Origin: Candidatus Omnitrophota bacterium
GTDB taxonomy: Bacteria > Omnitrophota > Gorgyraeia > Gygaellales > Profunditerraquicolaceae
Assembly (NCBI GenBank): GCA_028719265.1
Contig: JAQUKF010000001.1
Coordinates: forward strand, 6,463 to 41,187
Direction: 5' to 3'
Length of the DNA stretch: 34,725 bases
Shown here: piece by piece, positions 8,299-34,725 of the stretch
How the letters are laid out: each line of letters starts with the position of its first letter
How positions within the stretch are numbered: the stretch's first letter is position 1
The notes under the pieces: generated by a model
Databases searched by the model: none
Told to the model about the DNA's origin: nothing
What the model saw: the letters and a program-made list of their open reading frames with translations, nothing else
Position numbers and translations under genes: made by a program

Positions 8299-8310
8299 AT
8301 TATTTTAAGT

Positions 8311-9421: not shown

Positions 9422-9466
9422 ACATATCTCCTTATCTAACCCGCATCTTGCCTGAAAAAAACCGGT

Positions 9467-13341: not shown

Positions 13342-14579
13342 CTGCCGATCATCTCCTTCCTGCGCAAAAGCAGATGGTAGCTTAGGGCAAACCTGTGGGC
13401 CTCGTCACGTACGCGGCGGATAAGGTTTAGGGCCGGGGTATCGTAAGGAAAATTCAAGACGCCCTCCTTTTCACTACTATACACAAGCTCCTCCTTTTTG
13501 GCAATGCTGGCCAGCGGCAGCCTAAGACCCAGCCCCCTGACCTGCTTTAAAGCAGCCAAAAGATGCCCCTTGCCTCCGTCGATAAGCAGGAGATCCGGCA
13601 TAGCCGCCTTTTCCCTGAGCAGGCGGCTGTAGCGCCGGCGCACTACCTCTGCCAGCATTTTATAATCGTCGATACCCGCAATATACCTTATGCGGTAACG
13701 GCGGTAATTATTTTTATCCGGATTCCCCCGGCAGAAGCTCACCATGGAACCGACCGCCTGGCGGCCGGAAATATTGGATATGTCAAACCCCTCGATGCGC
13801 TCGGGCAACCTGTTTAAGCCCAGCCTATTCTTCAAATCCTCCAGCTCGCTTTTGCGGTTAACCCCGCTTAATCCGGCGGCAAGCTCGGCCAGGACGGAAA
13901 TTTGGTCGCGTATCTCGGCTGCAGCCTCAAAATCCCTTTCGCTGGATTTATTATGCATTAGATGGCTCAGCCTGCGGACCAAAAAATCCACCCTCCCCTC
14001 CAGGACCAACGCGATATTGTCGATGTTTAGGGCATATTCTTTGCGTCCGGGCCTGCGTACGCAGGGAGCCGGACATAGCCCTATCCTTCCGTATACACAT
14101 ATCTTTTTGGGGAGAGAACGGCAGGAACGGTATGGGAAGCTGCGCCGGATTATCCTTAAGGCCTCCTTTAGAAGCTTAGCGTTAGTATAGGGGCCGATAT
14201 ATCTAGCGGAAGGGTCGGATTTTTTGCGCGTAATGCTTATTGCCGGAAAATCACCGGAAGAAATCTTTACCAACGGGAAGCTTTTGTCATCGCGCAGGGA
14301 AACATTGTAACGGGGCTTAAATTTACGGATAAGGCTGGCTTCCAGCAGAAGGGCCATTGCCTCATTAGGGCACAGCTTGAATTCAATATCGGAAACCCTG
14401 TTCATTAAAGCAAGGGTCTTGTTATCCAAAAACCTGGAGAGATAGCTTGATAATCTTTTTCTTAAGGAATTGGCCTTTCCTACATAAACGATCTCTCCTT
14501 CTGCGTCACGCATCAAATACACCCCCGGAGACTCCGGGGCGGAAGAAACCTTGTCTTTCAGTGCCTTCGAATAATCCAT
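13338..14579 (-). CDS. uvrC: Excinuclease ABC subunit C, short form (no C-terminal HhH2 domain)
   Basis: GIY-YIG block (PGVYLMRDAEGEIVYVGKANSLRKRL), a Cys-rich segment, a UVR motif (ERDFEAAAEIRDQISVL) and an endonuclease domain (IEGFDISNISG...DEAHRFA). The ORF ends right after the HR..RRK segment. Confidence 0.85.
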   Translation of the reverse strand: MDYSKALKDKVSSAPESPGVYLMRDAEGEIVYVGKANSLRKRLSSYLSRFLDNKTLALMNRVSDIEFKLCPNEAMALLLEASLIRKFKPRYNVSLRDDKSFPLVKISSGDFPAISITRKKSDPSARYIGPYTNAKLLKEALRIIRRSFPYRSCRSLPKKICVYGRIGLCPAPCVRRPGRKEYALNIDNIALVLEGRVDFLVRRLSHLMHNKSSERDFEAAAEIRDQISVLAELAAGLSGVNRKSELEDLKNRLGLNRLPERIEGFDISNISGRQAVGSMVSFCRGNPDKNNYRRYRIRYIAGIDDYKMLAEVVRRRYSRLLREKAAMPDLLLIDGGKGHLLAALKQVRGLGLRLPLASIAKKEELVYSSEKEGVLNFPYDTPALNLIRRVRDEAHRFALSYHLLLRRKEMIGR

Positions 14580-14613
14580 GGATTTATCCTTATTCCGGAC
14601 CTTGTTGTTATAT

Positions 14614-16155
14614 CTAATTCCTTAAGGACAGCCAGCGTATAATCTCTCTTAGTTCAGTCACGCCGAAAATAAAACAAAATATGAGATATGACATGGCCGC
14701 ACAAAATAAAGCCCAACCGAGATTCAGGGCGCGGTTAACCAGAAAAGAGACGAACGCCATACACAGAGAAGCAAAGAATATGCGTAAAAAAGAGAAAAAT
14801 ATCTTCCTCTCCCCGAATCCGCCCAGGCGTTTCCCAAGGATAAAGAAAAGTACCAGGAAAGTGGCTATTCCAGAGATAGAGGTAGCCAGGGCCAGTCCCC
14901 CTATCTTTAACGGGAACATTAAAATGGAATTAAATACGATGTTCATGACAAGCGCCAAGAAAGCTGTCTTTGCGGGGGTGACCGTATCCTTAAGCGCGAA
15001 GAAACAGGCTTGCAGCAATTTTGTCCCGCCATAAGCGCATAAGCCGATGCTATAAAAAAGAAGGGCGTTGCTGGTCAAGAAGCTCGAATTAAGATCGAAT
15101 CTTCCCCCGCCAAAAAGAGTACTTACCAACGGGCGGGCAAGGACCATAAAGATCGCGCTTGCCGGCAGCATGACAAAGAATACCATGCGTATTCCCCATG
15201 AAAGGGTGGTTTTAAGCTCATCCCTCTCTTTTTCCAAAGCCTGGGTGGAGAAAGTAGGCAGGATGGCCTGCGATAAAGCATTACTGAAAATGCCTATGGG
15301 GAATTGGATAAGCCGGTAGGCAAAATATAGCACCGCCACCCCTCCGTCTCCTACTATCGTTATCAAGGAAGCGAATACGGAATCTACAAAATTATTCAGC
15401 TGGTAGATACCCGAACTGGCCAGGCGCGGGAGCATCAGCCTTTTGACCTGTTCCAGGCCGGGGTGGTGAAAATTAATAACCGGACGCACCTTAAATCCCT
15501 TCCTGCGCAGGACAGGTATCTGCACGGCCAACTGCAGCAGCCCTCCCAATAAGACCCCGCTGGCCAAACCCCTGATCCCCTCTCCAAAAAGCAGGGCGCA
15601 GACGATTATGGAAATATTTAGAAAACAGGGGGCTAGCGCCGAAACGGCAAAATTCTTGAGCGAATTCAACACCGCCGTAGCATAAGCCGCCAGTCCGATA
15701 AGCAATATATAAGGGAAGATAATCCGGTTCAACCGGATAGTCGCCTCCAGCTTATCCGGGGACGCAATGAAGCCCGGAGCAATCAGGCGCACGATCAATG
15801 GCGAAAAGATAATCCCCAGTATGGTTATGGCGCTCAATATGACCAGCAGCAGATTGAGCAGGAGGTTCGCCAGCTCCCAGAACTCTTCTTTTGAACGCTT
15901 AATACTGTATTCACTTAATACCGGCACGATTGCGGCATTGGAAGCACCCTCACCGACAAAATCCCGGAAGAGGTTTGGTATGCGGAAGGCGATAACGAAC
16001 GCCTGGGCGTACAGGTAAACCCCGAAAAGACGGGCAATGACCATATCCCTTATGAATCCCAGGAGGCGCGAGATAAGGGTGGCCAGGCTGATCACGGTCG
16101 CCGAGCGCGCGACCATCCGGTTATGACTGCCTAGTGAATATTTGCTTGTTGACAT
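14614..16155 (-). CDS. murJ: Lipid II flippase MurJ (MviN family)
   Basis: 513-aa polytopic protein with N-terminal SRLLGFIRDMVIARLFG and FRIPNLFRDFVGEGA signatures. Confidence 0.9.
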   Translation of the reverse strand: MSTSKYSLGSHNRMVARSATVISLATLISRLLGFIRDMVIARLFGVYLYAQAFVIAFRIPNLFRDFVGEGASNAAIVPVLSEYSIKRSKEEFWELANLLLNLLLVILSAITILGIIFSPLIVRLIAPGFIASPDKLEATIRLNRIIFPYILLIGLAAYATAVLNSLKNFAVSALAPCFLNISIIVCALLFGEGIRGLASGVLLGGLLQLAVQIPVLRRKGFKVRPVINFHHPGLEQVKRLMLPRLASSGIYQLNNFVDSVFASLITIVGDGGVAVLYFAYRLIQFPIGIFSNALSQAILPTFSTQALEKERDELKTTLSWGIRMVFFVMLPASAIFMVLARPLVSTLFGGGRFDLNSSFLTSNALLFYSIGLCAYGGTKLLQACFFALKDTVTPAKTAFLALVMNIVFNSILMFPLKIGGLALATSISGIATFLVLFFILGKRLGGFGERKIFFSFLRIFFASLCMAFVSFLVNRALNLGWALFCAAMSYLIFCFIFGVTELREIIRWLSLRN

Positions 16156-24507: not shown

Positions 24508-24583
24508 TGGTGGAGCTGAGGAGGATTGAACTCCTGACCCCTTGCATGCCATGCAAGTGCTCTCCCAGCTGAGCTACAGCCCC
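24508..24583 (-). tRNA. tRNA-Ala (anticodon GGC), CCA encoded
   Basis: The reverse complement folds as GGGGCTG/TA/GCTC-AGCTGGGA-GAGC/A/CTTGC-ATGGCAT-GCAAG/GGGTC/AGGAG-TTCAATC-CTCCT/CAGCTCC-A-CCA. The G3:U70 alanine identity pair is present. Confidence 0.95.
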
Positions 24584-24704: not shown

Positions 24705-24787
24705 GCCGAAGTGGTGGAATGGCATACACGTCGGTCTCAAAAACCGATGAGGGCAACCTCGTAAGGGTTCAACTCCCTTCTTCGGCA
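24705..24787 (+). tRNA. tRNA-Leu (anticodon CAA), class II with long variable arm, CCA not encoded
   Basis: Acceptor GCCGAAG/CTTCGGC plus discriminator A. Anticodon arm TCGGT-CTCAAAA-ACCGA. Variable arm GAGG-GCAA-CCTC. T arm AAGGG-TTCAACT-CCCTT. Confidence 0.9.
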
Positions 24788-24842: not shown

Positions 24843-26579
24843 TTAATGGATAAGGAAATTTAGCAGTCCTCCGGTAGCCAGGGCCACCAAACACATAATC
24901 ATGCTCGCCTTGAGCAGGTCCTTGAAGCCGAGCTCCTTAAAGAAAACCACGAATGTCGCTGCGCAGGGAAAGGACACCGCCAGGAGCACGGCGGCGATAA
25001 AAAGCTGTTTGACGCTCAAAGCCAGCGGTATAAGCATTCCTACCGCCACATCCTTACGGAATAACCCCATCACCAGGGCAACCACCGCCTCCTTGGGCAA
25101 ACCGAATAATCCCTGGACCACCGGCTCAAACAACCCGGTGAATAAACCAAACAGCTTAAAATAAAGCAGGACATTGATTATCAAGACTCCCAAAAGGACC
25201 AGAGGCGCCGCCTCAATAATAAAACCTTTGATACGCAGAAACAATTTCTTCCACAGGGTGGAGAATGAAGGCAGGCGGTACGGAGGGATCTCAACCAGGA
25301 GCTCCGGGCTGTATCCCTTGACCGTATGGTTAAGGATTACTCCCAACACCACCCAGATAACCAGGAGCACAAGATATACCCCGGATACGTAAAACCCGGA
25401 TGACTTTCCCAACAGGCCGAAGATCATCGCCTGGAGGGCTACGCAAGGGATACCGATGGAAATCAACGTAGCGGCAATAAAGCGCTCACGCCTGGATTCC
25501 AGGTTACGCGTGGCCAGTATGCCAGGGACATTGCAGCCCAGTCCCAGGAGCACCGGTATAATCGCAAAACCATGCAGCCCGATGTGATGCAGGAGATTAT
25601 CCAAAAGCATTGCCAACCGCGGCAGGATCCCGATATCCTCCAGCAGCCCCAAAACCAGATAAAAGGCAACTATATAAGGCAGGACCATGGCAAACTCTAT
25701 ATAGGGCGCGGTGGTCAACAGTCCCAGAGACTGCTTGAAGTCGATTCTGCCGTCGACCAGATCCCCGATCAACAGATGATGTAGAAAGCTTCCCGGCCGC
25801 AAGGCCAGGCTTAACTTATCCAGAAAGGGCTGATAAAAATTAACAAATACAGGGTCGGCGATCAAATTGATCAAGCCTTCACCTATAAAACGTACTATCT
25901 TGAACGCGGCAAAAATAACGCCCGCGGCGATCAGCGCCCCGCTGAACGGCCTTACAGAGGCGTCCTCCAGCAGCTCGCGCAGGCTATGGTGCCTATGCGT
26001 CAAGTGCTGCGCTTTCTCGACAATCTCACCGATCGCCTGCCAGCGTTCCCGGTGGCTTATTTTGGGCCTGGAGACAATCTTTACGTTTTCTATCTTTTCA
26101 ATAAGCGCTTTTATGCCTAAACCTGTTACCGCGCAAGTGGGGACGACCGGAATCCCGAGCGCCTCTCCCAAAAGCGCCGTATCTATGCTTACACCGTGGT
26201 GTTTGGCCTCATCGCACATATTCAGGCATACCACTACCGGCAGGCCGGTCTCAAGCAGTTGTAAAGTCAAGTACAGGTTGCGCTCCAGATTAGTGGAATC
26301 CACTATGTTTATAACAGCTATCTCCTCTTTGGAGGATTCGTTGAGCATCGATACAACAACTTCCTCCGCCTTGGAACCCGGCTCAAGAGAATATGTGCCC
26401 GGAAGGTCGATAACCTCGAATTCCTGCCTGCCGAGCTTAAGGAACCCGCGCATGATCTCAACCGTAGTACCGGCATAGTTGGAAGAGATAACCTGCACCC
26501 CTGTCAGGCGCGAGAATATCACGCTTTTGCCGACATTCGGATTTCCCACCAGGAAGATCTTTTTAATCATGTACCTCAA
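24843..26579 (-). CDS. feoB: Ferrous iron transporter FeoB
   Basis: N-terminal G domain (GNPNVGKS, DLPGTYS, NMCD) followed by a polytopic membrane domain. Confidence 0.92.
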   Translation of the reverse strand: MRYMIKKIFLVGNPNVGKSVIFSRLTGVQVISSNYAGTTVEIMRGFLKLGRQEFEVIDLPGTYSLEPGSKAEEVVVSMLNESSKEEIAVINIVDSTNLERNLYLTLQLLETGLPVVVCLNMCDEAKHHGVSIDTALLGEALGIPVVPTCAVTGLGIKALIEKIENVKIVSRPKISHRERWQAIGEIVEKAQHLTHRHHSLRELLEDASVRPFSGALIAAGVIFAAFKIVRFIGEGLINLIADPVFVNFYQPFLDKLSLALRPGSFLHHLLIGDLVDGRIDFKQSLGLLTTAPYIEFAMVLPYIVAFYLVLGLLEDIGILPRLAMLLDNLLHHIGLHGFAIIPVLLGLGCNVPGILATRNLESRRERFIAATLISIGIPCVALQAMIFGLLGKSSGFYVSGVYLVLLVIWVVLGVILNHTVKGYSPELLVEIPPYRLPSFSTLWKKLFLRIKGFIIEAAPLVLLGVLIINVLLYFKLFGLFTGLFEPVVQGLFGLPKEAVVALVMGLFRKDVAVGMLIPLALSVKQLFIAAVLLAVSFPCAATFVVFFKELGFKDLLKASMIMCLVALATGGLLNFLIH

Positions 26580-26799
26580 CCTCTATTTTACTCGCCACTC
26601 CGTGACCCAGGACCAGGACGCTCCTGCCAACCTTGATCGCCACCGGACCCCTTAGGCCGACATGGCTGATCTTAACGATCTCCCGTCCTTTATAAACCCC
26701 CATGCTCATAAGCTTATTCTGCAGCCCCATGCCCGCGGCAATCTCGAAAACCACCCCTTTTCGATTAGCCTTCATCTGAGCCAAAGTTGTCTTTTTCAT
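26563..26799 (-). CDS. feoA: FeoA-family protein
   Basis: 78-aa SH3-like FeoA pattern (L..M..G..G.V..I...G......L..MG...G..I). It overlaps feoB by 17 nt. Confidence 0.8.
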   Translation of the reverse strand: MKKTTLAQMKANRKGVVFEIAAGMGLQNKLMSMGVYKGREIVKISHVGLRGPVAIKVGRSVLVLGHGVASKIEVEVHD

Positions 26800-26800
26800 T

Positions 26801-27409
26801 CTATTTGATGTATTTTTCTATCGCCTTGTATACCCGCCCGGCTATGATTTTATAACCCCGTGCGTTAGGATGGAAAAAATCGCTCTTCATCGCGGGATTA
26901 GTGATTATCTTATAAAGGACAACGGGGATGAATATCGCCTGTTTCCTTCTGGCTAATTTCTTTAAGGCTGCCCGGTACTCCCTGAAGAACATGCCCGCGC
27001 TGATATCCATTAAAGCTACCATCGCCCCTTGCGCCTGGATACGGTCGATTATTTCACTCAGATTATTGACCGTCGTCTCCCGCGGGATCTTCTTTAAAAA
27101 ATCGTTACCGCAGAACTCAACGATAACCAGGCGCGGGTCCCTGCTCAATACATCGCGCTCCAGACGCTCCAAGGCGGCAAAGCTCGTATCTCCGTCGACA
27201 CCTGCATTGATCACCGGTAGTTTCACCATCTTGCTTAAGGCCGATGGATAATCCTCGCCGGCAGAGGCGCCATAACCGAAAGTAATGCTGTCTCCAAAAC
27301 AAATAATGTTGGAGCCTTTGGAGCCGGCGTTCTTGATCTCCTGTTGTGCGCATCCGCATAAGGCGGCGACCAGAACAACAAAAAAAACAGAAAAACTAAT
27401 TCTTTTCAT
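26801..27409 (-). CDS. SGNH/GDSL-family hydrolase lipoprotein (arylesterase/TesA-like)
   Basis: Lipobox LCGC plus block I FGDSIT, block III CGNDF and block V DFFHPN. Confidence 0.8.
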   Translation of the reverse strand: MKRISFSVFFVVLVAALCGCAQQEIKNAGSKGSNIICFGDSITFGYGASAGEDYPSALSKMVKLPVINAGVDGDTSFAALERLERDVLSRDPRLVIVEFCGNDFLKKIPRETTVNNLSEIIDRIQAQGAMVALMDISAGMFFREYRAALKKLARRKQAIFIPVVLYKIITNPAMKSDFFHPNARGYKIIAGRVYKAIEKYIK

Positions 27410-28433
27410 GCTTCAGCCTCAATTGTCCGCAGGCGGCCTGGATATCCTGCCCGCGCTCCTTTCTTAAAGTAACATTGACCCCGGTTTTAAACAAATACTC
27501 TTTGAACGCCGACACCTCTTGTTCGGACGGCGGGAGCATCTTCTCCGTTGACCCGTTGACTGGATTTGCGGGAATAAGGTTCACTTTGGCCAGCCTCAAG
27601 CTACTTAAAAGCCCGGATAATTTTTTGGCCGACGCTAAATCCGAGTTCAACCCCTTCACCAGGATATACTCAAAGGTAACTTGTCGGTTCGTTTTCTCGC
27701 TATATTCCCGGCAACACCTGATTAAATCCGACAATGGATATTTACGGTTAATCGGCATTATCCTTGAGCGCAGGCTGTCGTCTGCGGCATGCAGGGATAT
27801 GGAAAGCTCTACCTGCAAAGATTCCCCCTGCAGCCTCCTTATCCCGGGAACAATCCCGCAGGTAGATATAGTGATTTTTCTGGAGCCGATATTAAAAGCC
27901 TCCGGGGAATTTATCACCCTTACGGCCTTCAAAAGGTTATCGTAATTGTCCAAAGGCTCCCCCGTCCCCATAAATACGATATGGGTAAGCTGCCCCTTTT
28001 CCAAGTTATGCTTTAAATACAAAACCTCATCCAGCATCTCCCCGCATGTCAAGTTGCGTTTAAACCCTTTAAGCCCGCTTGCGCAAAAGGAGCAGGCGAA
28101 TTTGCATCCCGCCTGCGAGGAAATACAACCGGTTACGCGTCTAGCGGCCGGGATGCCTACTGCCTCAATCAAATTACCGTCTTTCAGCTCAAAAAGGAAC
28201 TTATCCGTACCGTCGGAAGAACGCTGCAAATCCTCCAGTCTTAACCCTAGTATATAAAACTCATCGGTCAGCAGGTCTCTTAAGGTAACCGGCAAATCGC
28301 TCATCTTGGCGAATTCATAGGCCCCTTTACCGTAGATCCAAGACAATACCTGCCTGGCGTGATATCCCGGCTTCCCCCAGGAAAGCAACTTTACCTCCAA
28401 CTCCTTAAGGCTCAACTCCTTGATATCTCGCAT
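27396..28433 (-). CDS. rlmN: 23S rRNA/tRNA adenine-C2 methyltransferase RlmN (radical SAM)
   Basis: CKFACSFC radical-SAM cluster motif, FMGTGEPL, and the C-terminal conserved ACGQL. Confidence 0.9.
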   Translation of the reverse strand: MRDIKELSLKELEVKLLSWGKPGYHARQVLSWIYGKGAYEFAKMSDLPVTLRDLLTDEFYILGLRLEDLQRSSDGTDKFLFELKDGNLIEAVGIPAARRVTGCISSQAGCKFACSFCASGLKGFKRNLTCGEMLDEVLYLKHNLEKGQLTHIVFMGTGEPLDNYDNLLKAVRVINSPEAFNIGSRKITISTCGIVPGIRRLQGESLQVELSISLHAADDSLRSRIMPINRKYPLSDLIRCCREYSEKTNRQVTFEYILVKGLNSDLASAKKLSGLLSSLRLAKVNLIPANPVNGSTEKMLPPSEQEVSAFKEYLFKTGVNVTLRKERGQDIQAACGQLRLKHEKN

Positions 28434-28440
28434 GGTTTAT

Positions 28441-29949
28441 TCAAGAACGGTTTCTAAGTTTTTCTTTATCGATCTTTCCGGTCCGGTTTTTGGGGAGCTC
28501 TGCGCAAAACTCAAAGTGGTGGGGGATCTTAAAATGCGCCAGATGCCGGCGCAGGAAGAAACGCAGGTCCTCGTCTGGAATAACCCCTTCCTTCCTGGCC
28601 ACCAGGAAGGCTTTAGGCACCTCTCCCCTTAATTTGTCGGCCACTCCTACTACCGCGGCCTCGGCGATATCCGGATGTTTCAACAGGACAGATTCGACCT
28701 CCGGCTCGAAAACAATTTCTCCTCCGACCTTGATCATCTCTTTTTTCCTGCCGACGATATAAAGGAATCCCTGCGCGTCAAATTTTCCCAGGTCCCCGGT
28801 ATAAAACCAGCCATTACGGATACTCCGGCGGGTAAGCTCTTCATCCTTAAGGTAACCGTCGGTAACTACCCAGCTTTTTACCGCGACTTCGCCGACCTCA
28901 TCCGTCTTCAACTCCCTGCCGTCATCTGAAAAGATCTTCACTTTTATCCAAGGGGCAGGCCTGCCTACGCTCTCGATATTGCCGGAGCCCATCGGCAGGA
29001 CCACGGTAGGGGCATTGGTTTCAGTCAGGCCCCATCCGTTCAGAAGAAATGCCTTCGGGCAGAATTGATGGAACCTGCGTAAGGCATCCGGGGAATTCGA
29101 GGCACCGAAGGTAACGATCCAACGCAGACTGGATAAATCAAATGTTTCAAACTCCTTTAGCTGCAAAAGGGCATAATACATCGAGGGGACTATCCAGAAG
29201 AAATTAACCTTATGGTTTTGGATATTCCTCAGGAAATCCAGGGGCATAAAACGCTCCATAAGTATCATGGTCAGGCCGAAGGTGACCGTGTTCTGGATAT
29301 ATATTAAACCTCCCAAATGAGAAAACGGAAGGGCGCAAATGGTGGTATCTTTTGGGCCCAAATCCGCGTTCACAAAGAAGGCCATTGATTTGGGAGGGGC
29401 GTCAAGCTGCAGGTAATTGATCAACACTCCCTTGGGTTTACCTGTTGTCCCCGACGTATAAAAAACTATTGCCTCGTCCTTTTCTGGCGCTCCCGCACCG
29501 CCCGAGAATTCCGCCTCTTGTCCCAAAAACCCTTCGAAGCTTAGCGTTCCCTCCTCCGCAGAACGGCAGGAAACTATGTGAGTTAATGCCGGCAGGGCCG
29601 ACTTAAGGCTGGCAAAAGAAATATTGGCTTTATGCTTGGTTATCAGGACTTTGGCTTCGCAATGCCCTAGGCATGAGATTATCTCATCTTCGGTAAGCAT
29701 AAAATCAAGGGGAACACTGCATGCGCCGATAGACCAGATAGCCAAATAACTGTAAATATACTCCGGCCAGTTGGGCAGATAGACGGCAACCCTGTCCCCG
29801 CGCTTGACCCCAAGCTTAAGCAGCCCCCGGGCAAGCGAAAAGACTTTATCCTTGAGCTGCAAAAAGGAAATTTTTTCCTGGCCAAAGACGACCGCAGGTT
29901 TATGCCCTTGCTCCTGTGCTCTTGCTTTTAAAAGACTGACAACATCCAT
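28441..29949 (-). CDS. AMP-forming acyl-CoA ligase (ANL superfamily)
   Basis: Motifs YTSGTTGKPKGV, GWGLTE, YTGDLG and GRKKEMIKVGGE. The start at ATG 29949 (MDVVSLL) forms a TGATG junction with the ALDH stop. The 79-codon upstream extension in the ORF track lies inside the ALDH gene. Confidence 0.85.
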   Translation of the reverse strand: MDVVSLLKARAQEQGHKPAVVFGQEKISFLQLKDKVFSLARGLLKLGVKRGDRVAVYLPNWPEYIYSYLAIWSIGACSVPLDFMLTEDEIISCLGHCEAKVLITKHKANISFASLKSALPALTHIVSCRSAEEGTLSFEGFLGQEAEFSGGAGAPEKDEAIVFYTSGTTGKPKGVLINYLQLDAPPKSMAFFVNADLGPKDTTICALPFSHLGGLIYIQNTVTFGLTMILMERFMPLDFLRNIQNHKVNFFWIVPSMYYALLQLKEFETFDLSSLRWIVTFGASNSPDALRRFHQFCPKAFLLNGWGLTETNAPTVVLPMGSGNIESVGRPAPWIKVKIFSDDGRELKTDEVGEVAVKSWVVTDGYLKDEELTRRSIRNGWFYTGDLGKFDAQGFLYIVGRKKEMIKVGGEIVFEPEVESVLLKHPDIAEAAVVGVADKLRGEVPKAFLVARKEGVIPDEDLRFFLRRHLAHFKIPHHFEFCAELPKNRTGKIDKEKLRNRS

Positions 29950-31433
29950 CAGAATCCGTACCAATAATTGACTAAAGGTTTCCCTTCCGGGGATTGATCC
30001 AAAATCACGTTCTTGAGCCGGCTGTACTCCAGCATTCCCTCTCTTCCCAGCTCTTTGCCAAAACCGCTCTGTTTGAACCCGCCGTAGGGCAGCTGGTTGT
30101 AAAACATGCCGTAAGTATTTATCCAAACAGTCCCGGCATTTATCCTGCCGGCCAGATCCCTGGCCCGCGGCAAATCCTTGCTCCATATGCAGGCGGCTAA
30201 ACCGAAATCCGCATTGTTAGCCAAGATGGCGGCTTCATCGGAGCTTGAGAACTTATTGATCAAGGCCACCGGACCAAACACCTCTTCCTTGAATATATGC
30301 GCGCCGGCGCCCACATTTGCCAAAACCGTAGGTTCAAAGAAATAACCGTTTTTCAGCTCCGCGATATCAGGTATTTTGCCGCCGCATACAACCTTAACCC
30401 CCTCGGCCCTGGCCTTTTCTATACCGGCAATTACCTTTTTACGCTGCGCATCATTGATTAATGGGCCCATTTGGGTTTGAAAATCCTCCGCCGGACCCAA
30501 TTTTATACGTTTAGCCTTCTCCGTAAATGCGGCAAGGAACTGCTCGTAAATAGCCTCCTGGACAAAGATCCGCGACATCGCCGTGCACATCTGGCCCTGG
30601 TTAAGAAAAATAGATGTCAGGCAGCTGTTCACCGCCACATCCAGGTCAACATCGTCAAATACTATGCCGGCGGATTTCCCTCCGAGCTCCATGGTCATCT
30701 TCTTAACATTCTTGGAGGAATACTGTATTATCTTTTTACCCGTTTCATTGCTGCCGGTAAAAGAGACCATATCAATACGCTTGTCCGCGCAAAGACTTTC
30801 CCCTACCAACGAACCGCTTCCATTGATCACATTAACTACCCCGTCAGGAAGGCCTGCCTGGCGGACAATCTTTGCCAACTCCAGAGCGGTAAGCGGCGTA
30901 AGGCTGGAAGGTTTTAAAATGACCGTATTGCCGCAAGCCAGGGCCGAAGCCAGCTTCCAGCAGGCAATCAAAAGCGGATAATTCCAAGGGACGATCAGCG
31001 TCGTCACCCCCATAGGTTCACGAAGCAGGTTCGCTCTGGCATCTTCACAAACCTTGATCTCTTCGGAGGCCAGATAATTTATGAAATTATGTGCCGCAAA
31101 TTCAAATGCCTCGGCGCTGGAGGGGATATCCATAAAGGTGGTTTCCTTTATGGGTTTGCCGCTGTTAGATGTTTCCAGCTGCGCCAGATCAGCGGCATTA
31201 TCCAGGATGCCCTGGCCGATCCGGGAAATAAACTCCCTGCGTTCAAGCAATGACAGGCGCGGCCAGGGGCCGGAATCAAAAGCCTCCCTGGCGCTGGCAA
31301 GACCAAGCTCCAATTCCTTTGGGGAAGCTAAAGATGCTTCGGCAATCACCTTGCCCGTGGAAGGATTGATAATATTCTGCTTCTTGGCTGTTTCTATGAA
31401 TTGTCCGTTTATAAAAAGCGGATAGGAGTTCAT
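29949..31433 (-). CDS. NAD(P)+-dependent aldehyde dehydrogenase
   Basis: 494 aa with catalytic Glu block MELGGKSA, catalytic Cys block NQGQMCTAMSR, and FTGS cofactor motifs. Confidence 0.9.
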   Translation of the reverse strand: MNSYPLFINGQFIETAKKQNIINPSTGKVIAEASLASPKELELGLASAREAFDSGPWPRLSLLERREFISRIGQGILDNAADLAQLETSNSGKPIKETTFMDIPSSAEAFEFAAHNFINYLASEEIKVCEDARANLLREPMGVTTLIVPWNYPLLIACWKLASALACGNTVILKPSSLTPLTALELAKIVRQAGLPDGVVNVINGSGSLVGESLCADKRIDMVSFTGSNETGKKIIQYSSKNVKKMTMELGGKSAGIVFDDVDLDVAVNSCLTSIFLNQGQMCTAMSRIFVQEAIYEQFLAAFTEKAKRIKLGPAEDFQTQMGPLINDAQRKKVIAGIEKARAEGVKVVCGGKIPDIAELKNGYFFEPTVLANVGAGAHIFKEEVFGPVALINKFSSSDEAAILANNADFGLAACIWSKDLPRARDLAGRINAGTVWINTYGMFYNQLPYGGFKQSGFGKELGREGMLEYSRLKNVILDQSPEGKPLVNYWYGF

Positions 31434-32431
31434 TTTATCTTTATTTCTTTAAACAGGGAAAAGAGCCGAGTAAACGGAACATACCATTTAGAAAGCTGGC
31501 CCAATTGCCCGCTCAATCTCATCTTTCCCTGGGTCACCGCCACAAAACAATCCAGCTTGCCCAGAAAAACCTGTTCCCAGGTTGGCCGGGGGGCGGATAT
31601 CACAAAAGGAGCCTCGACGTCAGGATCCAATCTCACGATCTTCCCCTTGTCAAAACTGAATTTAAATACATCGTCGCAATCATCCATGCGTATAGCCAGT
31701 TGTAAGGTCAGATCCAGCTCTTTTCCCTTCTGGGCGATAAATTCATCCTTGTTGACCAAATCCACGATCGCCTGTATATGCTCCCGGCTAAACATCCTGT
31801 AAGCCGGCTCATCGCGTTTAAAATCATCCCTTAAAGCGGAGTCCAGACTGTCCAATATGCCTCTCTCGAACAGGCGGGCACAGGCAGCGCTCTTTACCGC
31901 CTCTTCCAGGGCTTCAGTAACATCCAGGGCTTCCTCAAACTTATCTGCGATCGCCACCGTGCCGTGATTTCTTAAAACCACCAGGTTATTGCTCTTTAGG
32001 GCGGCGATGACCGGCTCGGGAACGGTTACCGTCGGTGTTTCCTGCGGTATCACCGGAATATCCCCCAGGTAAAATTTAGTCTCAAAACTCATGGCCTTGA
32101 GCGTCTTGGTAACCGCAAAATACCCGTTGATCAAAGGAGGATGACAATGCAGTACCACCCTTGCAGGAAAATTCTTATATACCAGCATATGCAGGGGAAG
32201 TTCAGAACTTGGTTTAACCGAACCCGCAGCTTCCGGTTTATCCAGGTTGACTTTAACTATATCCCCTTCCTGCAGCCGGCCCAAAGCAGTGCCGCTGGCA
32301 GTAATCAATATATTTTCATCGTCGATCTTCACGCTTAAATTCCCGGATTTGGCCACCGCCAGCCCGGACTCATAAAGCCGTCTGCCGACCTCGATAATCT
32401 CAAGTTTCAAATCTTTCTCTGACATAATCAT
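31430..32431 (-). CDS. Class II (metal-dependent) aldolase/adducin-family domain fused to a C-terminal SCP2 domain
   Basis: The N-terminal ~190 aa carry SGNLS, PSSELPLH, LHCHPP and LRNHGTV (Glu/His metal ligands). The C-terminal ~110 aa show the SCP2 pattern FKFSFDKGKIV...WEQVFLGKLDCFVAVTQGKMRLSGQLGQL. Confidence 0.75.
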   Translation of the reverse strand: MIMSEKDLKLEIIEVGRRLYESGLAVAKSGNLSVKIDDENILITASGTALGRLQEGDIVKVNLDKPEAAGSVKPSSELPLHMLVYKNFPARVVLHCHPPLINGYFAVTKTLKAMSFETKFYLGDIPVIPQETPTVTVPEPVIAALKSNNLVVLRNHGTVAIADKFEEALDVTEALEEAVKSAACARLFERGILDSLDSALRDDFKRDEPAYRMFSREHIQAIVDLVNKDEFIAQKGKELDLTLQLAIRMDDCDDVFKFSFDKGKIVRLDPDVEAPFVISAPRPTWEQVFLGKLDCFVAVTQGKMRLSGQLGQLSKWYVPFTRLFSLFKEIKIK

Positions 32432-33342
32432 ACCCCCAAATAAACATGCCTGGTGATCAATTCTGCCGGCGTGACGTCAAAAGCCGGGTAATACGCTTTA
32501 ACCTCTTTCGGAGCAAGCAACAATCCCTGGTAAACCTTAAGTTCATTCTCCGGCCGGATCTCAATCCTGATCTCTTTGCCGCTTTTCAACTTTGAAGGAG
32601 GAGGACAAAGAACATAAAAGGGAACCCTGAAATATCTGGCTACTACCGCGATCTGGTAGGTTCCGATCTTATTGGCGATATCCCCGTTTTGTGCCAAATG
32701 GTCTGCCCCGACGACAACTTTATTTACTTTCCCCAGCGACAACAGGTAGGCCACCATATTGTCGGTAATGATGGTTACGGGGATTTTCTGTCTCATCAAT
32801 TCCCAGGCGGTAAGCCGCGAACCCTGCAGATAAGGTCTGGTCTCGGTAACGTAAAAGCTTACTTTCTTCCCCTCTTTTCTGGCAAACTCCGCGATTAACG
32901 GCATTGAACCGCTGACATTGCAATGCGTAAGTATGACGTCGCCGTCCTTAAGCAGTGCGGCCATATCCCTGGCCTGCTGTATGCGCGCGGCCTTAAGCGC
33001 TTTCAGGAAACCGGTTATACTCTCCTCCAGGGGCCGGCCGGATTTCGCCCAACCCAGGACCATATCCGTCAATACCTTGAACGCCAGAGTAGGACGAGTG
33101 GCATTAATGGCCTCGGCCACCTTGGTTAAATCGATTTTCTGCCGCCTGCTCAACATAAAGGTGTACATCACCAGGAGCACTTGGCCTACCGCCCGGGTCT
33201 TCATCTCTTTGATCGCCCGGCATGCCTGACGGTAGTCTTTTACTTTTATGTAAACCAGCTTCTGCGGCAGCCTGGTCTCATCAAGGATGCGGATGAAACT
33301 GCCATTCAGTTCTATAGGCCAGAAAAGCGGAGACAGTTTCAT
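32428..33342 (-). CDS. MtnA/eIF2B-family sugar-1-phosphate isomerase (MTR-1-P / 5-deoxyribose-1-P isomerase-like)
   Basis: LTHCN (catalytic Cys context), VTETRPYLQGSRLTAWEL, and GADHLAQNGDIANKIGTY (catalytic Asp context). At 304 aa it is shorter at the N-terminus than typical MtnA. Confidence 0.75.
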   Translation of the reverse strand: MKLSPLFWPIELNGSFIRILDETRLPQKLVYIKVKDYRQACRAIKEMKTRAVGQVLLVMYTFMLSRRQKIDLTKVAEAINATRPTLAFKVLTDMVLGWAKSGRPLEESITGFLKALKAARIQQARDMAALLKDGDVILTHCNVSGSMPLIAEFARKEGKKVSFYVTETRPYLQGSRLTAWELMRQKIPVTIITDNMVAYLLSLGKVNKVVVGADHLAQNGDIANKIGTYQIAVVARYFRVPFYVLCPPPSKLKSGKEIRIEIRPENELKVYQGLLLAPKEVKAYYPAFDVTPAELITRHVYLGV

Positions 33343-34091
33343 TATCTTCCTTCCATCTTCTTTACCGCCTCCAGGGCGATCTTAATCAGGTTGCTCTCGG
33401 CCATATAATAAAGCGGGTTCATAAACCCCATCTCTCCGGTAATCACGTTGTCGCTGACCGCCAGTATGGAAGCGGCTTTTATCTTATATGTCTGGCAGAT
33501 TGTCAGCAGGGTTGAAGAAACCATATCTACCGCCATGGCCCCTTCCTTCCGTTTGGCCTCCACGATCTGGCGCGTCTCGCGCAAGAGGGCATCGGTTGTC
33601 CAGGCTTTACCTCGGTGCACGTTCAACCCCATATCTTTGGCGATACCGAATAAAAGGTCGGATATGCCTTTATCGCTGGCAGTCTTAAAATCCTCATCCA
33701 CGTAATACGGGGTAACCCCGTCCCCGCGGATGATCTCATCTACGATAAACAGGTCCCCTACCTTGATATTTTCATCGAGAGAACCGCAGGTGCCTATGCG
33801 TATAATATTCGGTATCCCGGCATTACACATCACCTCGGTGGTAATCGAAGTGTCTGTCGAGAACCTCCCGCCGTTTATTCCGGTAACCTTGATCCCTTCG
33901 AATGTCCCGGTGTACATGGTATATTCCATAAAAGAGAAGTTGCGCACGGGGTTATCGATCTTTTTCATCAATACTTCCAGCCGGTCCTTCGGGCCCGGCA
34001 CGATGGCATATTTACCTACATCCTGCGGCCTGAGCTGCACCATGGCCGTTAAATCCTTACCTGTCAAATGTACATCCTTCTGCATCTGCAT
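33342..34091 (-). CDS. PNP/UDP-1 family nucleoside phosphorylase
   Basis: Family pattern IRIGTCGSL...GD...VDMVSSTL...AVSDN. The preferred start is ATG 34091, preceded by AGGAG (34105..34101). The ORF-track GTG at 34118 would overlap the DUF190 gene. The stop forms a TAATG junction with the isomerase start. Confidence 0.7.
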   Translation of the reverse strand: MQMQKDVHLTGKDLTAMVQLRPQDVGKYAIVPGPKDRLEVLMKKIDNPVRNFSFMEYTMYTGTFEGIKVTGINGGRFSTDTSITTEVMCNAGIPNIIRIGTCGSLDENIKVGDLFIVDEIIRGDGVTPYYVDEDFKTASDKGISDLLFGIAKDMGLNVHRGKAWTTDALLRETRQIVEAKRKEGAMAVDMVSSTLLTICQTYKIKAASILAVSDNVITGEMGFMNPLYYMAESNLIKIALEAVKKMEGR

Positions 34092-34110
34092 TTTTAATCT
34101 CTCCTGTTCT

Positions 34111-34440
34111 TTAAGCACGGTACATGATTACATTCGCCTTCTCAAGCGTGATCAACCCCTCTTTGACCATGGCGTCAAGCTGGGGGATAAACTGATTTAT
34201 CTTCTCTTCACTATCCACTATTTCGATAACTACCGGCAGATCCTCGGACAACCTCAGGATGTTCGAGGTATGCATATGGCTTTTACATCCAAACCCCATA
34301 AACCCTTTAACCGCAGTCGCCCCGGCCAAACCGCTCCTTTTAGCCAAAAGAATGATTTCTTCATATAGCGGTTTACCGTTGAATTTATCCGCCTCTCCTA
34401 TAAAAACCCTCAATAGCTTGCCATCCGCGGGAATCTTCAT
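34111..34440 (-). CDS. DUF190 (PII-like) protein commonly paired with CrcB
   Basis: 109 aa with LLRVFIGEADKFNGKPLYEEI...GLAGATAVKGFMGFG. It has an ATGA-type overlap with the crcB stop. Confidence 0.7.
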   Translation of the reverse strand: MKIPADGKLLRVFIGEADKFNGKPLYEEIILLAKRSGLAGATAVKGFMGFGCKSHMHTSNILRLSEDLPVVIEIVDSEEKINQFIPQLDAMVKEGLITLEKANVIMYRA

Positions 34441-34725
34441 ATCGCCTCTCCTATAAAAGCCCCTGCCCTGAATAATATAAGCCCCAGCAACACGCTGAGG
34501 AATACGTTATTGAAAGCCCTTACCGCCTGGCCGTTCCGGATCAGGCTGTCGGTCTCGAATATCAGGGTTGAGAACGTGGTGAACGCCCCGCAGAAACCGA
34601 CCATCAGCAGCATGCGCGCATCCGGACCAAGCATAAACTTCTTCTCGGACAGGGAAACCAAAAACCCCAGGATAAAACAACCGCTTATATTTACAGCCAG
34701 AGTACCGTAAGGGAATGCCGGGCCC
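34437..34725 (-). CDS. crcB: Fluoride channel CrcB/FluC (5' end beyond the right edge)
   Basis: GFCGAFTTFSTLIFET signature. The frame stays open upstream of the ORF-track TTG to the window edge and reads GPAFPYGTLAVNISGCFILGF, which is typical CrcB TM1/2 sequence. Confidence 0.8.
   Translation of the reverse strand, partial: GPAFPYGTLAVNISGCFILGFLVSLSEKKFMLGPDARMLLMVGFCGAFTTFSTLIFETDSLIRNGQAVRAFNNVFLSVLLGLILFRAGAFIGEAI

Follow-up and report, generated by a model that had tools for sequence, protein, structure and literature searches.

A five-gene module of Omnitrophota that may extend a DHAP-shunt-type route by aldehyde oxidation and acyl activation

The chemistry of the DHAP shunt is established (PMC6079011), and the fluoroacetate pathway offers a precedent for an aldehyde dehydrogenase (ALDH) that oxidises the aldehyde so produced (PMC3999930). 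The locus described here lies in a window of 34,725 nt, the whole stretch of DNA that was analysed, from a Candidatus Omnitrophota bacterium (GTDB lineage Bacteria; Omnitrophota; Gorgyraeia; Gygaellales; Profunditerraquicolaceae; assembly GCA_028719265.1, contig JAQUKF010000001.1, positions 6,463-41,187 of the forward strand). On its minus strand, five adjoining open reading frames at 28441-34091 encode, in this order, a phosphorylase, an isomerase, an aldolase-SCP2 fusion, an ALDH and a ligase.

Gene set and enzyme families

The five families and four start/stop junctions named in the first-pass annotation were recovered by Pfam profile matches and by direct re-reading of the sequence. The first gene (PNP; 33342..34091, minus strand, as are all genes below; 249 aa; PF01048 E=5.6e-33) encodes an NP-I nucleoside phosphorylase, DeoD/uridine-phosphorylase-like and purine-type, and meets the second gene in a TAATG junction. 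The latter (ISO; 32428..33342; 304 aa, unusually short; PF01008 E=1.8e-58) encodes an MtnA-clade isomerase converting aldose-1-phosphate to ketose-1-phosphate, and overlaps by ATGA with the aldolase gene, which starts two codons later in public annotation. The third product (ALDO; 31430..32431; 333 aa; PF00596 E=9.9e-38) combines a class II (FucA/DrdA-type) aldolase domain (~31892-32401) with a C-terminal SCP2 domain (~31457-31816), and a further ATGA joins it to an NAD(P)-dependent hydrolytic (non-acylating) ALDH (29949..31433; 494 aa; PF00171 E=3.9e-162). The TGATG junction that follows opens the gene for a FadD-like AMP-forming acyl-CoA/acyl-carrier-protein ligase (LIG; 28441..29949; 502 aa; PF00501 E=1.1e-81, PF13193 E=1.5e-22), whose coding sequence begins with the ATG at 29949 and not at 30186, where a 581-aa open reading frame starts. 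Close spacing is not peculiar to these five genes, as crcB and DUF190 upstream share an ATGA, DUF190 and PNP are 19 nt apart, rlmN lies 7 nt beyond the ligase, and rlmN and the SGNH lipase gene overlap by 14 nt. Scanning 26500-34725 for consensus promoters and terminators gave nothing beyond shuffled expectation.

Among NCBIfam models the phosphorylase scores highest on uridine phosphorylase (113 bits) and DeoD (88 bits), in every case far under the cut-off, and its identity over 64 related loci is 78-96%. It retains R37, R98, T101 and the purine-type Asp214 ('SDN'), and the uridine-phosphorylase-specific insertion is not present. Its E-M-E motif reads D-M-V, with Val191 in place of the canonical ribose-binding Glu, and Met occupies the inter-subunit Arg position. 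The earlier statement that catalytic motifs are intact in all five proteins needs narrowing to the isomerase, aldolase, ALDH and ligase, the phosphorylase being only partly canonical. Identification as an MTAP orthologue was rejected (19.9 bits on TIGR01694, cut-off 274.85).

The isomerase scores 210 bits on TIGR00524, above the 185.85 cut-off, and 228-237 bits on MtnA models (under their equivalog cut-offs) versus 126 bits on the R15P isomerase model e2b2. Of the solved structures it comes closest to MtnA 1t9k and 1t5o, with 173 bits for 1t9k against 93 bits for R15P isomerases, so that both models and structures agree with the first-pass assignment to MtnA-like enzymes rather than R15P isomerases or eIF2B subunits. 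The catalytic residues C141 (in THCN) and D214 (in GADH) are intact and conserved, whereas the 7-aa loop following the catalytic Cys is deleted. At this missing loop the protein resembles R15P isomerases, which would suit an ordinary purine nucleoside (adenosine, inosine or guanosine) as substrate: ribose-1-P would be isomerised directly by the MtnA-like enzyme, without a bisphosphate detour, and the resulting ribulose-1-P would yield DHAP and glycolaldehyde, then glycolate and a glycolyl thioester. Such a route appears improbable, since the isomerase scores clearly higher with MtnA than with R15P isomerase, the aldolase reaches just 69.9 bits on the halophile Ru1P-aldolase model (cut-off 300), the neighbourhood gene tables contain no ribokinase or R1P kinase nearby, and the repeated radical-SAM association, the SCP2 domain and the FadD-type ligase would be left unexplained. 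It does accommodate a phosphorylase that is DeoD/UP-like with a purine-type Asp and not MTAP-like, the preference of the ALDH family for small polar aldehydes, and a CCG-domain (GlcF/LutA-like) protein preceding the module in locus L091.

By profile score the aldolase sides with FucA and DrdA (105-120 bits) against 42 bits for the MtnB dehydratase, and its catalytic G30, N31, S33 (G30-N31-x-S33), E77, H95, H97 and H156 are invariant in 26 diverse family members. FucA and DrdA are also the top Foldseek matches of the fusion protein, whose AF2 model has a pLDDT of 81 (~90 across the C-terminal domain). The SCP2 domain read in the first pass is borderline in the single protein (E=0.001, 19.8 bits versus a cut-off of 21.3) and is upheld at family level, where 21/26 members match PF02036 (best E=3.9e-8) and residues 206-325 of the family profile match the solved SCP2 proteins 1wfr and 2cx7 (E ~4e-8 to 9e-8). 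Known SCP2 fusions work on lipidic or acyl-CoA substrates, and the conserved domain is unexplained by acetaldehyde (C2 aldehyde) chemistry.

The closest models of the ALDH are BADH and aminobutyraldehyde DH, under cut-offs, its closest structures are betaine-aldehyde DHs (~405 bits), and its catalytic E249 (ELGGK) and C283 (GQMC) are intact. The ligase retains its adenylation motifs (YTSGTTGKPKG at 165-174, GK at 490-491) and matches best the long-chain-fatty-acid-CoA ligase model PRK06187 (416 bits versus a cut-off of 476), with only 238 bits on acetate-CoA ligase PRK04319; structurally it comes closest to M. tuberculosis FadD5, feruloyl-CoA synthetase and 4CL. These matches liken it to ligases of the FadD type, for medium/long-chain or aromatic acids, and not to acetyl-CoA synthetase. 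The first-pass family assignments of ALDH and ligase are correct, but the acetyl-CoA end of its proposal is weakened.

Conservation and genomic context

In the collection of GTDB species representatives, 331 tblastn-confirmed stretches encode a relative, and at least 80 species representatives share the module. PNP-ISO-ALDO-ALDH is contiguous in every locus where contigs permit, and the ALDH gene follows the aldolase gene in 74/74 informative loci of the window's clade (clade 1). The same holds for the rearranged loci of clade 2 (L082-L084, L087 and the P0281 contig). The ligase gene occurs in four orders: ALDH-LIG, as in the window; PadR-LIG-PNP-ISO-ALDO-ALDH in L082-L084 and L087; LIG-PNP-ISO-rSAM-ISO'-ALDO, without ALDH, in L090; and PNP-ISO-ALDO-LIG-x-PPTase in L091. 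The last two loci lack ALDH, and L057-type loci lack PNP and the ligase. The co-conservation of ALDH and ligase with the other genes, on which the initial reading depended, is thereby borne out, and the linkage of the ligase in four orders across deeply diverged Omnitrophota argues from gene order that the five-gene module is a real functional unit.

The relatives found all come from Omnitrophota or from metagenome contigs that carry no assignment, so inherited gene order could account for part of this conservation. That nothing more is involved, each enzyme having a separate housekeeping role, is very improbable: although the relatives come from one phylum and the order of rlmN, SGNH lipase, nfo and leuS is kept in the window's clade, the module has outlasted toxin-antitoxin insertions as well as several independent rearrangements and stands between wholly different flanks, its genes share four start/stop overlaps, and its enzyme order equals the known reaction sequence (PMC6079011).

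The rlmN gene (27396..28433; TIGR00048 364 bits, cut-off 290) had been read as a functional clue, which is not sustained. It follows the ligase in 51/52 clade-1 loci but is absent beside the module in the rearranged L082-L084, L087, L090 and L091, and recurs outside clade 1 only in the divergent L089, which is without isomerase, ALDH and ligase. Since SGNH lipase, nfo and leuS are likewise retained in order downstream in the window's clade, the adjacency reflects mostly local synteny, and rlmN is not part of the module outside this clade.

Upstream, partial crcB (34437-34725, read from the sequence and the contig gene table) and DUF190 (34111-34440; PF02641 E=1.6e-39) form a fluoride-export pair that separates the module from the cluster upstream. 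Their proximity to the phosphorylase gene could suggest a fluorometabolite pathway from 5'-fluoro-5'-deoxyadenosine via fluoroacetaldehyde and fluoroacetate to fluoroacetyl-CoA. This is close to refuted, as no neighbourhood gene table contains a fluorinase/DUF62 (PF01887), crcB/DUF190 lie upstream of PNP in just 10-11/39 related loci, no fluoride riboswitch was found, and the product would be toxic. The pair is probably context, not part of the pathway.

The recurrent radical-SAM partner is instead a BchE/HpnJ-like B12-binding enzyme encoded just outside the window, with the hopanoid enzyme HpnJ as its second-best model. Its gene accompanies the module in 35/39 clade-1 loci having enough upstream sequence, adjoins ALDH in clade 2, lies within the module in L090 and, in L057 and L066, stands two genes upstream of ISO; the modules of L087, L089 and L091 have no such gene nearby. 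B12 radical-SAM enzymes of the BchE/HpnJ class release 5'-deoxyadenosine stoichiometrically. The partner cluster is type II PKS/FAS-like (KS-CLF/ACP/KR/cyclase), comprising a KS pair of which one subunit has the Cys-His-His triad and the other does not, together with an ACP, a KR, an SRPBCC protein and a PF04199 cyclase. In addition, an Sfp-type PPTase gene lies two genes past the ligase in L091 and L092. An acyl thioester could plausibly be taken up by this KS-CLF/ACP cluster.

An alternative scenario, which we consider rather unlikely, is that the radical-SAM enzyme attaches a 5'-deoxyadenosyl group to a hydrophobic olefin such as a lipid or polyketide, much as HpnH/HpnG (hopanoids) or MqnE (futalosine) would suggest. 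The phosphorylase, isomerase and aldolase would next split off adenine and, in the form of DHAP, C1-C3, with the hydrophobic tail held by SCP2, and the two-carbon-extended aldehyde would be oxidised and coupled to CoA or ACP, giving an acyl thioester for KS-CLF. This would make sense of the family-wide SCP2 fusion, the FadD-type ligase, the atypical sugar pocket of the phosphorylase, the HpnJ match and the embedding in a KS-CLF/ACP cluster, as well as of L090, where the radical-SAM gene lies inside the module and genes for an MMPL/Patched/sterol-sensing RND transporter, DUF1329 and DUF1302 come after it. However, the radical-SAM enzyme is neither HpnH- nor MqnE-like, and no B12-domain enzyme is known to carry out adenosylation. 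The HpnG model gives 45.6 bits (cut-off 187), the nearest relatives of the ALDH act on small polar aldehydes (BADH, aminoaldehyde DH) and are not fatty-aldehyde DHs, and the L087 and L091 modules have no radical-SAM gene nearby.

Candidate route and comparison with known systems

The reading that we tentatively prefer, while giving it somewhat less than an even chance, is a DHAP-shunt-type route converting a SAM-derived 5'-substituted adenosine to an acyl thioester that feeds the KS-CLF cluster. Gene order, families, catalytic residues and co-conservation with neighbours are observed directly; all substrates and products, the flux direction and the links to the radical-SAM enzyme and KS-CLF system are inferred. 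The substrate would be a purine nucleoside with its 5' position altered by SAM chemistry, most likely 5'-deoxyadenosine from the co-clustered B12 radical-SAM enzyme, and possibly MTA as well. The phosphorylase would strip the purine to leave a 5-substituted ribose-1-phosphate, the MtnA-like isomerase would form the corresponding ribulose-1-phosphate, and the class II aldolase would cut C3-C4 to give DHAP and a C2-based aldehyde, namely acetaldehyde from 5'-deoxyadenosine or 2-(methylthio)acetaldehyde from MTA. The hydrolytic ALDH would irreversibly oxidise this aldehyde to the acid, which the FadD-like adenylating ligase may load as a thioester onto CoA or the cluster's ACP, probably for the neighbouring KS-CLF/ACP/KR/cyclase system and not for general metabolism.

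Several observations weigh against this reading. SCP2 has no role if the aldolase handles only 5-deoxyribulose-1-P and acetaldehyde, and a dedicated acetyl-CoA route looks redundant, the ligase being FadD/4CL-like and not ACS-like. The phosphorylase falls outside the MtnP/MTAP orthologues and has Val in place of the canonical Glu, and the isomerase falls under MtnA equivalog cut-offs with its active-site loop deleted. The three loci without a nearby radical-SAM gene, those lacking ALDH (L090/L091) or PNP and ligase (L057-type), and the possible share of inherited gene order point the same way. Collectively, the DHAP-shunt reading first proposed is partly supported: it gains from the enzyme families, the MtnA-like isomerase and the co-conservation, and loses by the rlmN link, the phosphorylase, the ligase type and SCP2.

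The first-pass annotation had also regarded the arrangement as not previously described, which needs qualifying: the first four steps are closest to the lower half of the fluoroacetate pathway, in which phosphorylase, isomerase, aldolase and aldehyde dehydrogenase follow in the same order (PMC3999930; PMC6079011).

Organization and conservation of the module

The module comprises five ORFs, all on the minus strand, at 28441-34091 of the window. They encode a nucleoside phosphorylase (PNP; 33342-34091; PNP_UDP_1, E=5.6e-33), an MtnA-like isomerase (ISO; 32428-33342; IF-2B, E=1.8e-58), an aldolase-SCP2 fusion (ALDO; 31430-32431; PF00596 Aldolase_II, E=9.9e-38), an aldehyde dehydrogenase (ALDH; 29949-31433; Aldedh, E=3.9e-162) and an AMP-forming ligase (LIG; 28441-29949; AMP-binding, E=1.1e-81, and AMP-binding_C, E=1.5e-22). 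These Pfam matches bear out the enzyme families named in the first-pass annotation, confirming that the finding is real, and the junctions it reported (TAATG, ATGA, ATGA and TGATG) were reproduced from the sequence. LIG starts at 29949; a 581-aa ORF from 30186 overlaps ALDH out of frame and is absent from public gene calls. Close spacing is not confined to the module: crcB overlaps the DUF190 gene, DUF190 and PNP are 19 nt apart, LIG and rlmN are 7 nt apart, and rlmN overlaps an SGNH lipase gene by 14 nt. Scans for consensus promoters and terminators across 26500-34725 gave counts at or below shuffled expectation.

The window, part of a Candidatus Omnitrophota metagenome-assembled genome, is mostly a minus-strand housekeeping run (secA, prfB, leuS, lptE, lnt, murJ, uvrC, feoB), and its host is a diderm bacterium; the ALDO protein is 100% identical to one from GCA_028712145.1 (contig JAQTQP010000003.1). 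The prfB gene (RF2; 8311-9421, minus strand) contains a classic programmed +1 frameshift, in which ORF0 runs from an ATG at 9421 to an in-frame TGA within CTT TGA C (9355-9349), with an SD-like AGAGG ahead of it, and the main ORF occupies 8311-9306 (minus strand). Two divergent tRNA genes, at 24511-24583 (minus) and 24705-24787 (plus) between nfo and feoB, are the only Rfam matches in the window.

Relatives of the ALDO-SCP2 fusion form 1214 clusters at 90% identity (E<=1e-3), with full-length fusions in about 30 clusters at 50% identity, and tblastn confirmed 331 stretches that encode a relative among the GTDB species representatives. The named sources are Omnitrophota throughout, save for MAGs labelled "uncultured Planctomycetales bacterium", "Deltaproteobacteria bacterium" or plain "bacterium". 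A narrower ALDO alignment used as the locus query returned Omnitrophota only, and two more protein searches with the most divergent fusion profiles returned only Omnitrophota or unnamed metagenome proteins.

Within the window's own clade (clade 1; 81 loci, 65-82% ALDO identity), ALDH follows ALDO in all 74 loci whose contig continues, and PNP-ISO-ALDO are contiguous in 59 of the 65 loci with room for PNP. LIG adjoins in 41 loci, lies 0.7-6.9 kb away behind unrelated genes in 14, and is missing from the remaining flank in 11; the genes inserted before it include those for a PlsC-like acyltransferase, PurU and DUF748. The rlmN-SGNH/GDSL lipase pair (window 26801-28433, minus strand) is kept behind LIG in 51 of 52 clade-1 loci, and nfo and leuS follow farther downstream in about 25 loci each. 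The retention of these four genes in order indicates that local gene order is generally conserved. The first-pass annotation had pointed to rlmN as a producer of 5'-deoxyadenosine (5'-dAdo); we reject rlmN as the 5'-dAdo source for the module, as its adjacency tracks synteny with the SGNH lipase, nfo and leuS genes and is gone in rearranged clades. An rlmN gene is also found near the minimal PNP-ALDO pair of the divergent locus L089. Such general synteny could in principle account for the module as well, with no dedicated pathway behind it, but this is very improbable, being contradicted by the rearrangements found in more distant loci.

Loci of more distant fusion proteins (26-45% identity) are arranged independently, and PNP, ISO and ALDO are also clustered in the rearranged loci L082-L084, L087, L090 and L091. 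L082-L084 and the P0281 contig share the order PadR-LIG-PNP-ISO-small IF-2B fragment-ALDO-ALDH-B12 radical-SAM, with ApbA-KS-KS-ACP-cyclase further on, and L087 has the same order minus the radical-SAM gene. L090 reads PadR-LIG-PNP-ISO-radical-SAM-small IF-2B-ALDO-MMPL/Patched transporter-DUF1329-DUF1302, without ALDH, whereas L091 and L092 read MarR-CCG protein-PNP-long IF-2B-ALDO-LIG-small ORF-Sfp-type PPTase; the 100-aa ORF after LIG in L091 was considered as an ACP and rejected because it is not ACP-like. The order in L057 and L066 is KR-radical-SAM-Amidohydro_2-class IV aminotransferase-ISO-ALDO-ALDH, with no PNP or LIG nearby, L089 has PNP-ALDO-outer-membrane protein-rlmN, and L088 has ALDO by itself. 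Toxin-antitoxin pairs (HicAB, MNT/HEPN) lie between module genes in a rearranged clade (L082 8046-8344 and 10972-11588; P0281 contig), and the module order persists around these insertions. Approximately 3 kb downstream of the ALDH-less module of L092, a three-subunit molybdenum hydroxylase (5700-9546; Fer2, MoCoBD, FAD_binding_5) of the aldehyde oxidoreductase/xanthine dehydrogenase type might serve as a non-orthologous aldehyde oxidiser or act on purine bases. LIG accompanies the module through four gene orders whose flanks are unrelated, which is good evidence that they are functionally linked. Together with the invariant ALDH of clade 1, this retention supports the expectation of the first-pass annotation that ALDH and LIG are co-conserved with the first three genes.

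Enzyme assignments

The first-pass annotation described the catalytic motifs of all five enzymes as intact, which holds for ISO, ALDO, ALDH and LIG but not for PNP. The top models of PNP are uridine phosphorylase and DeoD, every one under its cut-off, and the MtnP/MTAP model TIGR01694 scores only 19.9 bits (cut-off 274.85), so that the protein does not qualify as an MTA/5'-dAdo phosphorylase by this measure. These scores place it among the hexameric NP-I enzymes (uridine phosphorylase/DeoD) and outside the MTAP orthologues. The uracil-specific insertion is missing and the purine-type Asp ("SDN") is retained. Residues 189-193 read VDMVSS in place of the NP-I E-M-E ribose-binding motif; the second, near-universal ribose-binding Glu of that motif is Val in the window protein and one of Val, Ile or Thr across all clades. 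Met likewise takes the place of the inter-subunit phosphate Arg in the window protein, and Met or Phe in the family.

ISO scores 210 bits against TIGR00524, over the cut-off of 185.85, and 228-237 bits against MtnA models, under their equivalog cut-offs, compared with 54-64 bits for eIF2B subunits and 126 bits for the R15P isomerase model TIGR00511 (cut-off 314). Among solved structures, MtnA proteins score 143-173 bits and R15P isomerases 87-93 bits, and the catalytic Cys (THCN, Cys141) and Asp (GADH, Asp214) of MtnA/DrdI-type isomerases are conserved. ISO is accordingly placed by these comparisons in the MtnA branch of the eIF2B-like family; the grouping with R15P isomerases or eIF2B subunits that the first-pass annotation named as decisive against its proposal was not seen. 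The protein is short (304 aa), and the 7-residue loop after the catalytic Cys of MtnA is deleted. In further clades, an extra gene of 147-171 aa beside the full ISO matches the C-terminal part of MtnA only (L082 9426-9941; L083 9511-9990; L084 9483-9926; L090 9535-10014). L091 carries a single 506-aa IF-2B protein (8477-9997), which suggests a fusion of the full ISO with the small C-terminal gene. A route from ribose-1-phosphate to glycolaldehyde is quite unlikely in view of the MtnA-type ISO and the radical-SAM association of the module.

ALDO retains the phosphate-binding GNxS motif, the catalytic Glu and three metal-binding His residues in 26 of 26 family members, and the invariant E77, H95, H97 and H156 mark it as a class II metal-dependent aldolase. 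The family profile scores 105-120 bits against FucA, 110 bits against DrdA (6btd) and only 42 bits against MtnB, values that place ALDO, as a predicted aldolase, with FucA and Ald2/DrdA as a group and not with the MtnB dehydratase. For the window protein alone, the SCP2 match is borderline (PF02036, 19.8 bits; cut-off 21.3). However, PF02036 matches 21 of 26 diverse family members (best E=3.9e-8), and the family profile matches the Thermus SCP2 structures 1wfr and 2cx7 over residues 206-325 (E ~4e-8 to 9e-8). The AF2 model of the C-terminal domain is alpha/beta with pLDDT ~90, running from helix-helix through four strands to further helices. Foldseek matches of the full-length model are dominated by the aldolase domain, and the SCP2 fold was addressed by the profile-versus-PDB sequence search. 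Profiles and modelled secondary structure agree in making the assignment to the putative sterol/lipid carrier domain SCP2 solid for the family.

ALDH is nearest to betaine- and aminoaldehyde dehydrogenases among both models and structures, has a marginal LuxC match, and carries the Glu249 and Cys283 of hydrolytic aldehyde dehydrogenases. These two residues led us to reject a CoA-acylating or reductive (reverse-direction) enzyme, and ALDH is accordingly expected to oxidise its aldehyde irreversibly to the free acid. The adenylation motifs of LIG are intact. Its best model is the FadD-like PRK06187 (416 bits; cut-off 476), its nearest structures are FadD5, feruloyl-CoA synthetase and 4CL, and the acetate-CoA ligase model PRK04319 reaches only 238 bits (cut-off 729). 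By these measures LIG is classified as FadD/4CL-like, not as an acetyl-CoA synthetase.

A neighbouring KS-CLF cluster and the candidate route

The window ends within crcB, and the contig goes on upstream into a biosynthetic cluster (1-7529 of L086, the contig just past the window's high-coordinate end). From crcB outward, the cluster encodes Amidohydro_2, a 137-aa protein, a CBM_11-like protein, an SDR/KR, an MFS transporter, an SRPBCC/polyketide-cyclase-like protein, a PF04199 cyclase, an ACP (L086 1983-2219), a B12-binding radical-SAM enzyme and a ketosynthase. In clade 1, 39 loci extend 8 kb or more upstream; every one of them has Amidohydro_2, the 137-aa protein, KR and SRPBCC, while 38 have the cyclase, 37 the ACP and 35 the radical-SAM enzyme, the shortfalls falling mostly where the fetched flank ends. 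Of two ketosynthases, KSa has Cys-His-His, residues that are replaced in KSb by Arg, Asp and Asn; the ACP bears a GVDS motif, and KR, SRPBCC and the PF04199 cyclase accompany them. Judged by residues and gene content, KSa and KSb are a KS-CLF-like pair in a type II PKS/FAS-like system, and an AmcF model match was recorded for this cluster. The KS-CLF/radical-SAM cluster co-occurs with the module across Omnitrophota.

Between this cluster and PNP lies the fluoride-export pair crcB-DUF190 (window 34111-34725; L086 7615-8315; minus strand; ATGA overlap). Its position directly upstream of PNP would suit a fluorometabolite route. However, crcB/DUF190 occupy this position in only 10-11 of 39 loci (about a quarter), no fluorinase (FlA, SAM-dependent halogenase family PF01887, for 5'-FDA supply) occurs in any neighbourhood gene table, and neither the window nor the contig upstream of it yielded a fluoride riboswitch. 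A fluoride link was rejected on these grounds, and the route is extremely improbable.

The best models of the radical-SAM enzyme are BchE (217 bits) and HpnJ (TIGR03471; 148.5 bits, cut-off 577.6), both well under their cut-offs. B12 radical-SAM enzymes of this class release 5'-deoxyadenosine, and the recurrence of one beside the module therefore favours a dedicated route of by-product removal. Our tentative preference is that the module removes inhibitory 5'-dAdo and returns its carbon as DHAP and an acyl thioester, the latter probably passing to the adjacent ACP/KS-CLF system; MTA would run by the same chemistry. The pathway logic of the first-pass annotation thus stays plausible, with the B12 radical-SAM/KS-CLF context taking the place of its rlmN argument.

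The conserved SCP2 domain, the FadD-type LIG and the atypical PNP fit poorly with this preferred route. These three features, together with the MMPL transporter of L090, keep alive the somewhat unlikely alternative that a hydrophobic substrate is adenosylated and that the module trims away the ribose, leaving a C2-extended acid. The glycolaldehyde, fluorometabolite and pure-synteny explanations rank below it. In L090, an MMPL/Patched/sterol-sensing RND transporter, DUF1329 (LolA-like) and DUF1302 (11086-15798) follow ALDO and replace ALDH and the KS-CLF cluster, a context that hints at a lipid connection. Taken more broadly, the module might be a ribose-trimming device through which adenosyl carbon from SAM becomes a building block for polyketides or lipids, which we hold to be unlikely. 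In one version of this device, the B12 radical-SAM enzyme may adenosylate a hydrophobic substrate and the module may leave a C2-extended acid that is loaded onto the ACP; in the other, the module may provide the KS-CLF system with an unusual starter acid of nucleoside origin.

If the preferred removal of 5'-dAdo holds, the module would be a DHAP shunt that keeps all the by-product carbon as DHAP and an activated acid, and one dedicated to a single biosynthetic cluster that includes a radical-SAM enzyme, not to housekeeping in general. The module may also be something more unusual than a variant of a DHAP-shunt-type pathway. Trimming via adenosylation, if true, would represent a novel form of carbon-chain homologation, and either version of the device would tie nucleoside/SAM salvage to type II PKS/FAS priming, a connection not known before, across an uncultured phylum. 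Two of the enzymes are new variants, namely the ALDO-SCP2 fusion and the PNP that lacks the canonical ribose-binding Glu. Omnitrophota are widespread and almost entirely uncultured, and we know of no characterized lipids or secondary metabolites from them; the approximately 15-gene cluster conserved across the phylum (KS-CLF pair, ACP, KR, cyclases, B12 radical-SAM enzyme and module) is therefore a concrete handle on their biochemistry.

Comparison with known systems

In hopanoid side-chain synthesis, HpnH adenosylates the substrate, the PNP-family HpnG cleaves the product, HpnJ is a B12 radical-SAM enzyme and HpnN an MMPL transporter, a precedent for nucleoside-derived carbon ending in a lipid. 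A similar combination is found here: a PNP_UDP_1 enzyme occurs with a B12 radical-SAM enzyme resembling HpnJ and with a putative sterol/lipid-binding domain, and L090 adds an MMPL transporter. However, the hopanoid pathway retains the ribose carbons, whereas the module would cleave them by its aldolase. PNP reaches only 45.6 bits against HpnG (TIGR03468; cut-off 187), neither an HpnH (TIGR03470) match nor a squalene-hopene cyclase was seen, and hopanoid orthology was rejected because the Hpn models score far below cut-off. The haloarchaeal non-carboxylating pentose bisphosphate pathway uses a phosphorylase, R1P kinase, R15P isomerase, RuBP phosphatase and Ru1P aldolase. Unlike that pathway, the module has an MtnA-clade ISO rather than an e2b2 enzyme and lacks the kinase and phosphatase, and ALDO scores 69.9 bits against the Ru1P aldolase model NF053831 (cut-off 300).

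The DHAP shunt for 5-deoxyribose disposal clusters a phosphorylase, an isomerase of the MtnA clade and a class II aldolase of the FucA/DrdA type in the order found here, and the two share a tie to radical-SAM by-products. The products predicted for the module, DHAP and an aldehyde from putative cleavage of 5-deoxyribulose-1-P or MTRu-1-P, are likewise those of the shunt. The shunt enzymes are MtnP or MtnN plus MtnK, MtnA/DrdI and Ald2/DrdA (PMC6079011, PMC10986504), and in the described shunts the aldehyde is released or reduced. The enzyme order of the module equals that of the shunt (PMC6079011) plus one oxidation and one activation step. It differs in having a divergent DeoD/UP-like NP-I enzyme instead of MtnP, a short ISO with a deleted loop, an aldolase with an SCP2 domain, co-conserved ALDH and adenylating LIG, and a setting within a KS-CLF/ACP/B12 radical-SAM cluster.

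The first-pass annotation regarded the arrangement as undescribed, which holds insofar as no description of the module was found in the searchable literature; a published catalogue listing Omnitrophica among phyla with KS-CLF pairs does not mention a nucleoside module (PMC10132072). Its first four steps, however, match the lower half of fluoroacetate synthesis in Streptomyces cattleya/Nocardia brasiliensis, namely the FlB phosphorylase, 5-FDRP isomerase, fuculose-type aldolase and fluoroacetaldehyde dehydrogenase (PMC3999930). The four enzyme types act there in the same order, an NAD-dependent ALDH converting a C2 aldehyde to the acid, which by analogy is the closest described precedent for C2-aldehyde oxidation. 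In those actinomycetes, the aldolase and ALDH genes are not clustered with the others, unlike here, and a thioesterase destroys the CoA ester, whereas LIG would make one.

Some type II PKS-like systems are primed by an adenylate-forming enzyme, as in cispentacin (AmcF/G with AmcH) and enterocin (EncN) biosynthesis. We know of no described system of this kind that makes its starter acid via a phosphorylase, isomerase, aldolase and ALDH. The usual substitute for the active-site Cys in type II PKS partners is Gln, whereas KSb has Arg. As in the cispentacin- and enterocin-type systems, a KS with an inactive KS-like partner, a discrete ACP, a KR, cyclases and an AMP-ligase are gathered in one cluster here, and by analogy a non-standard starter acid could reach the KS-CLF system through LIG.
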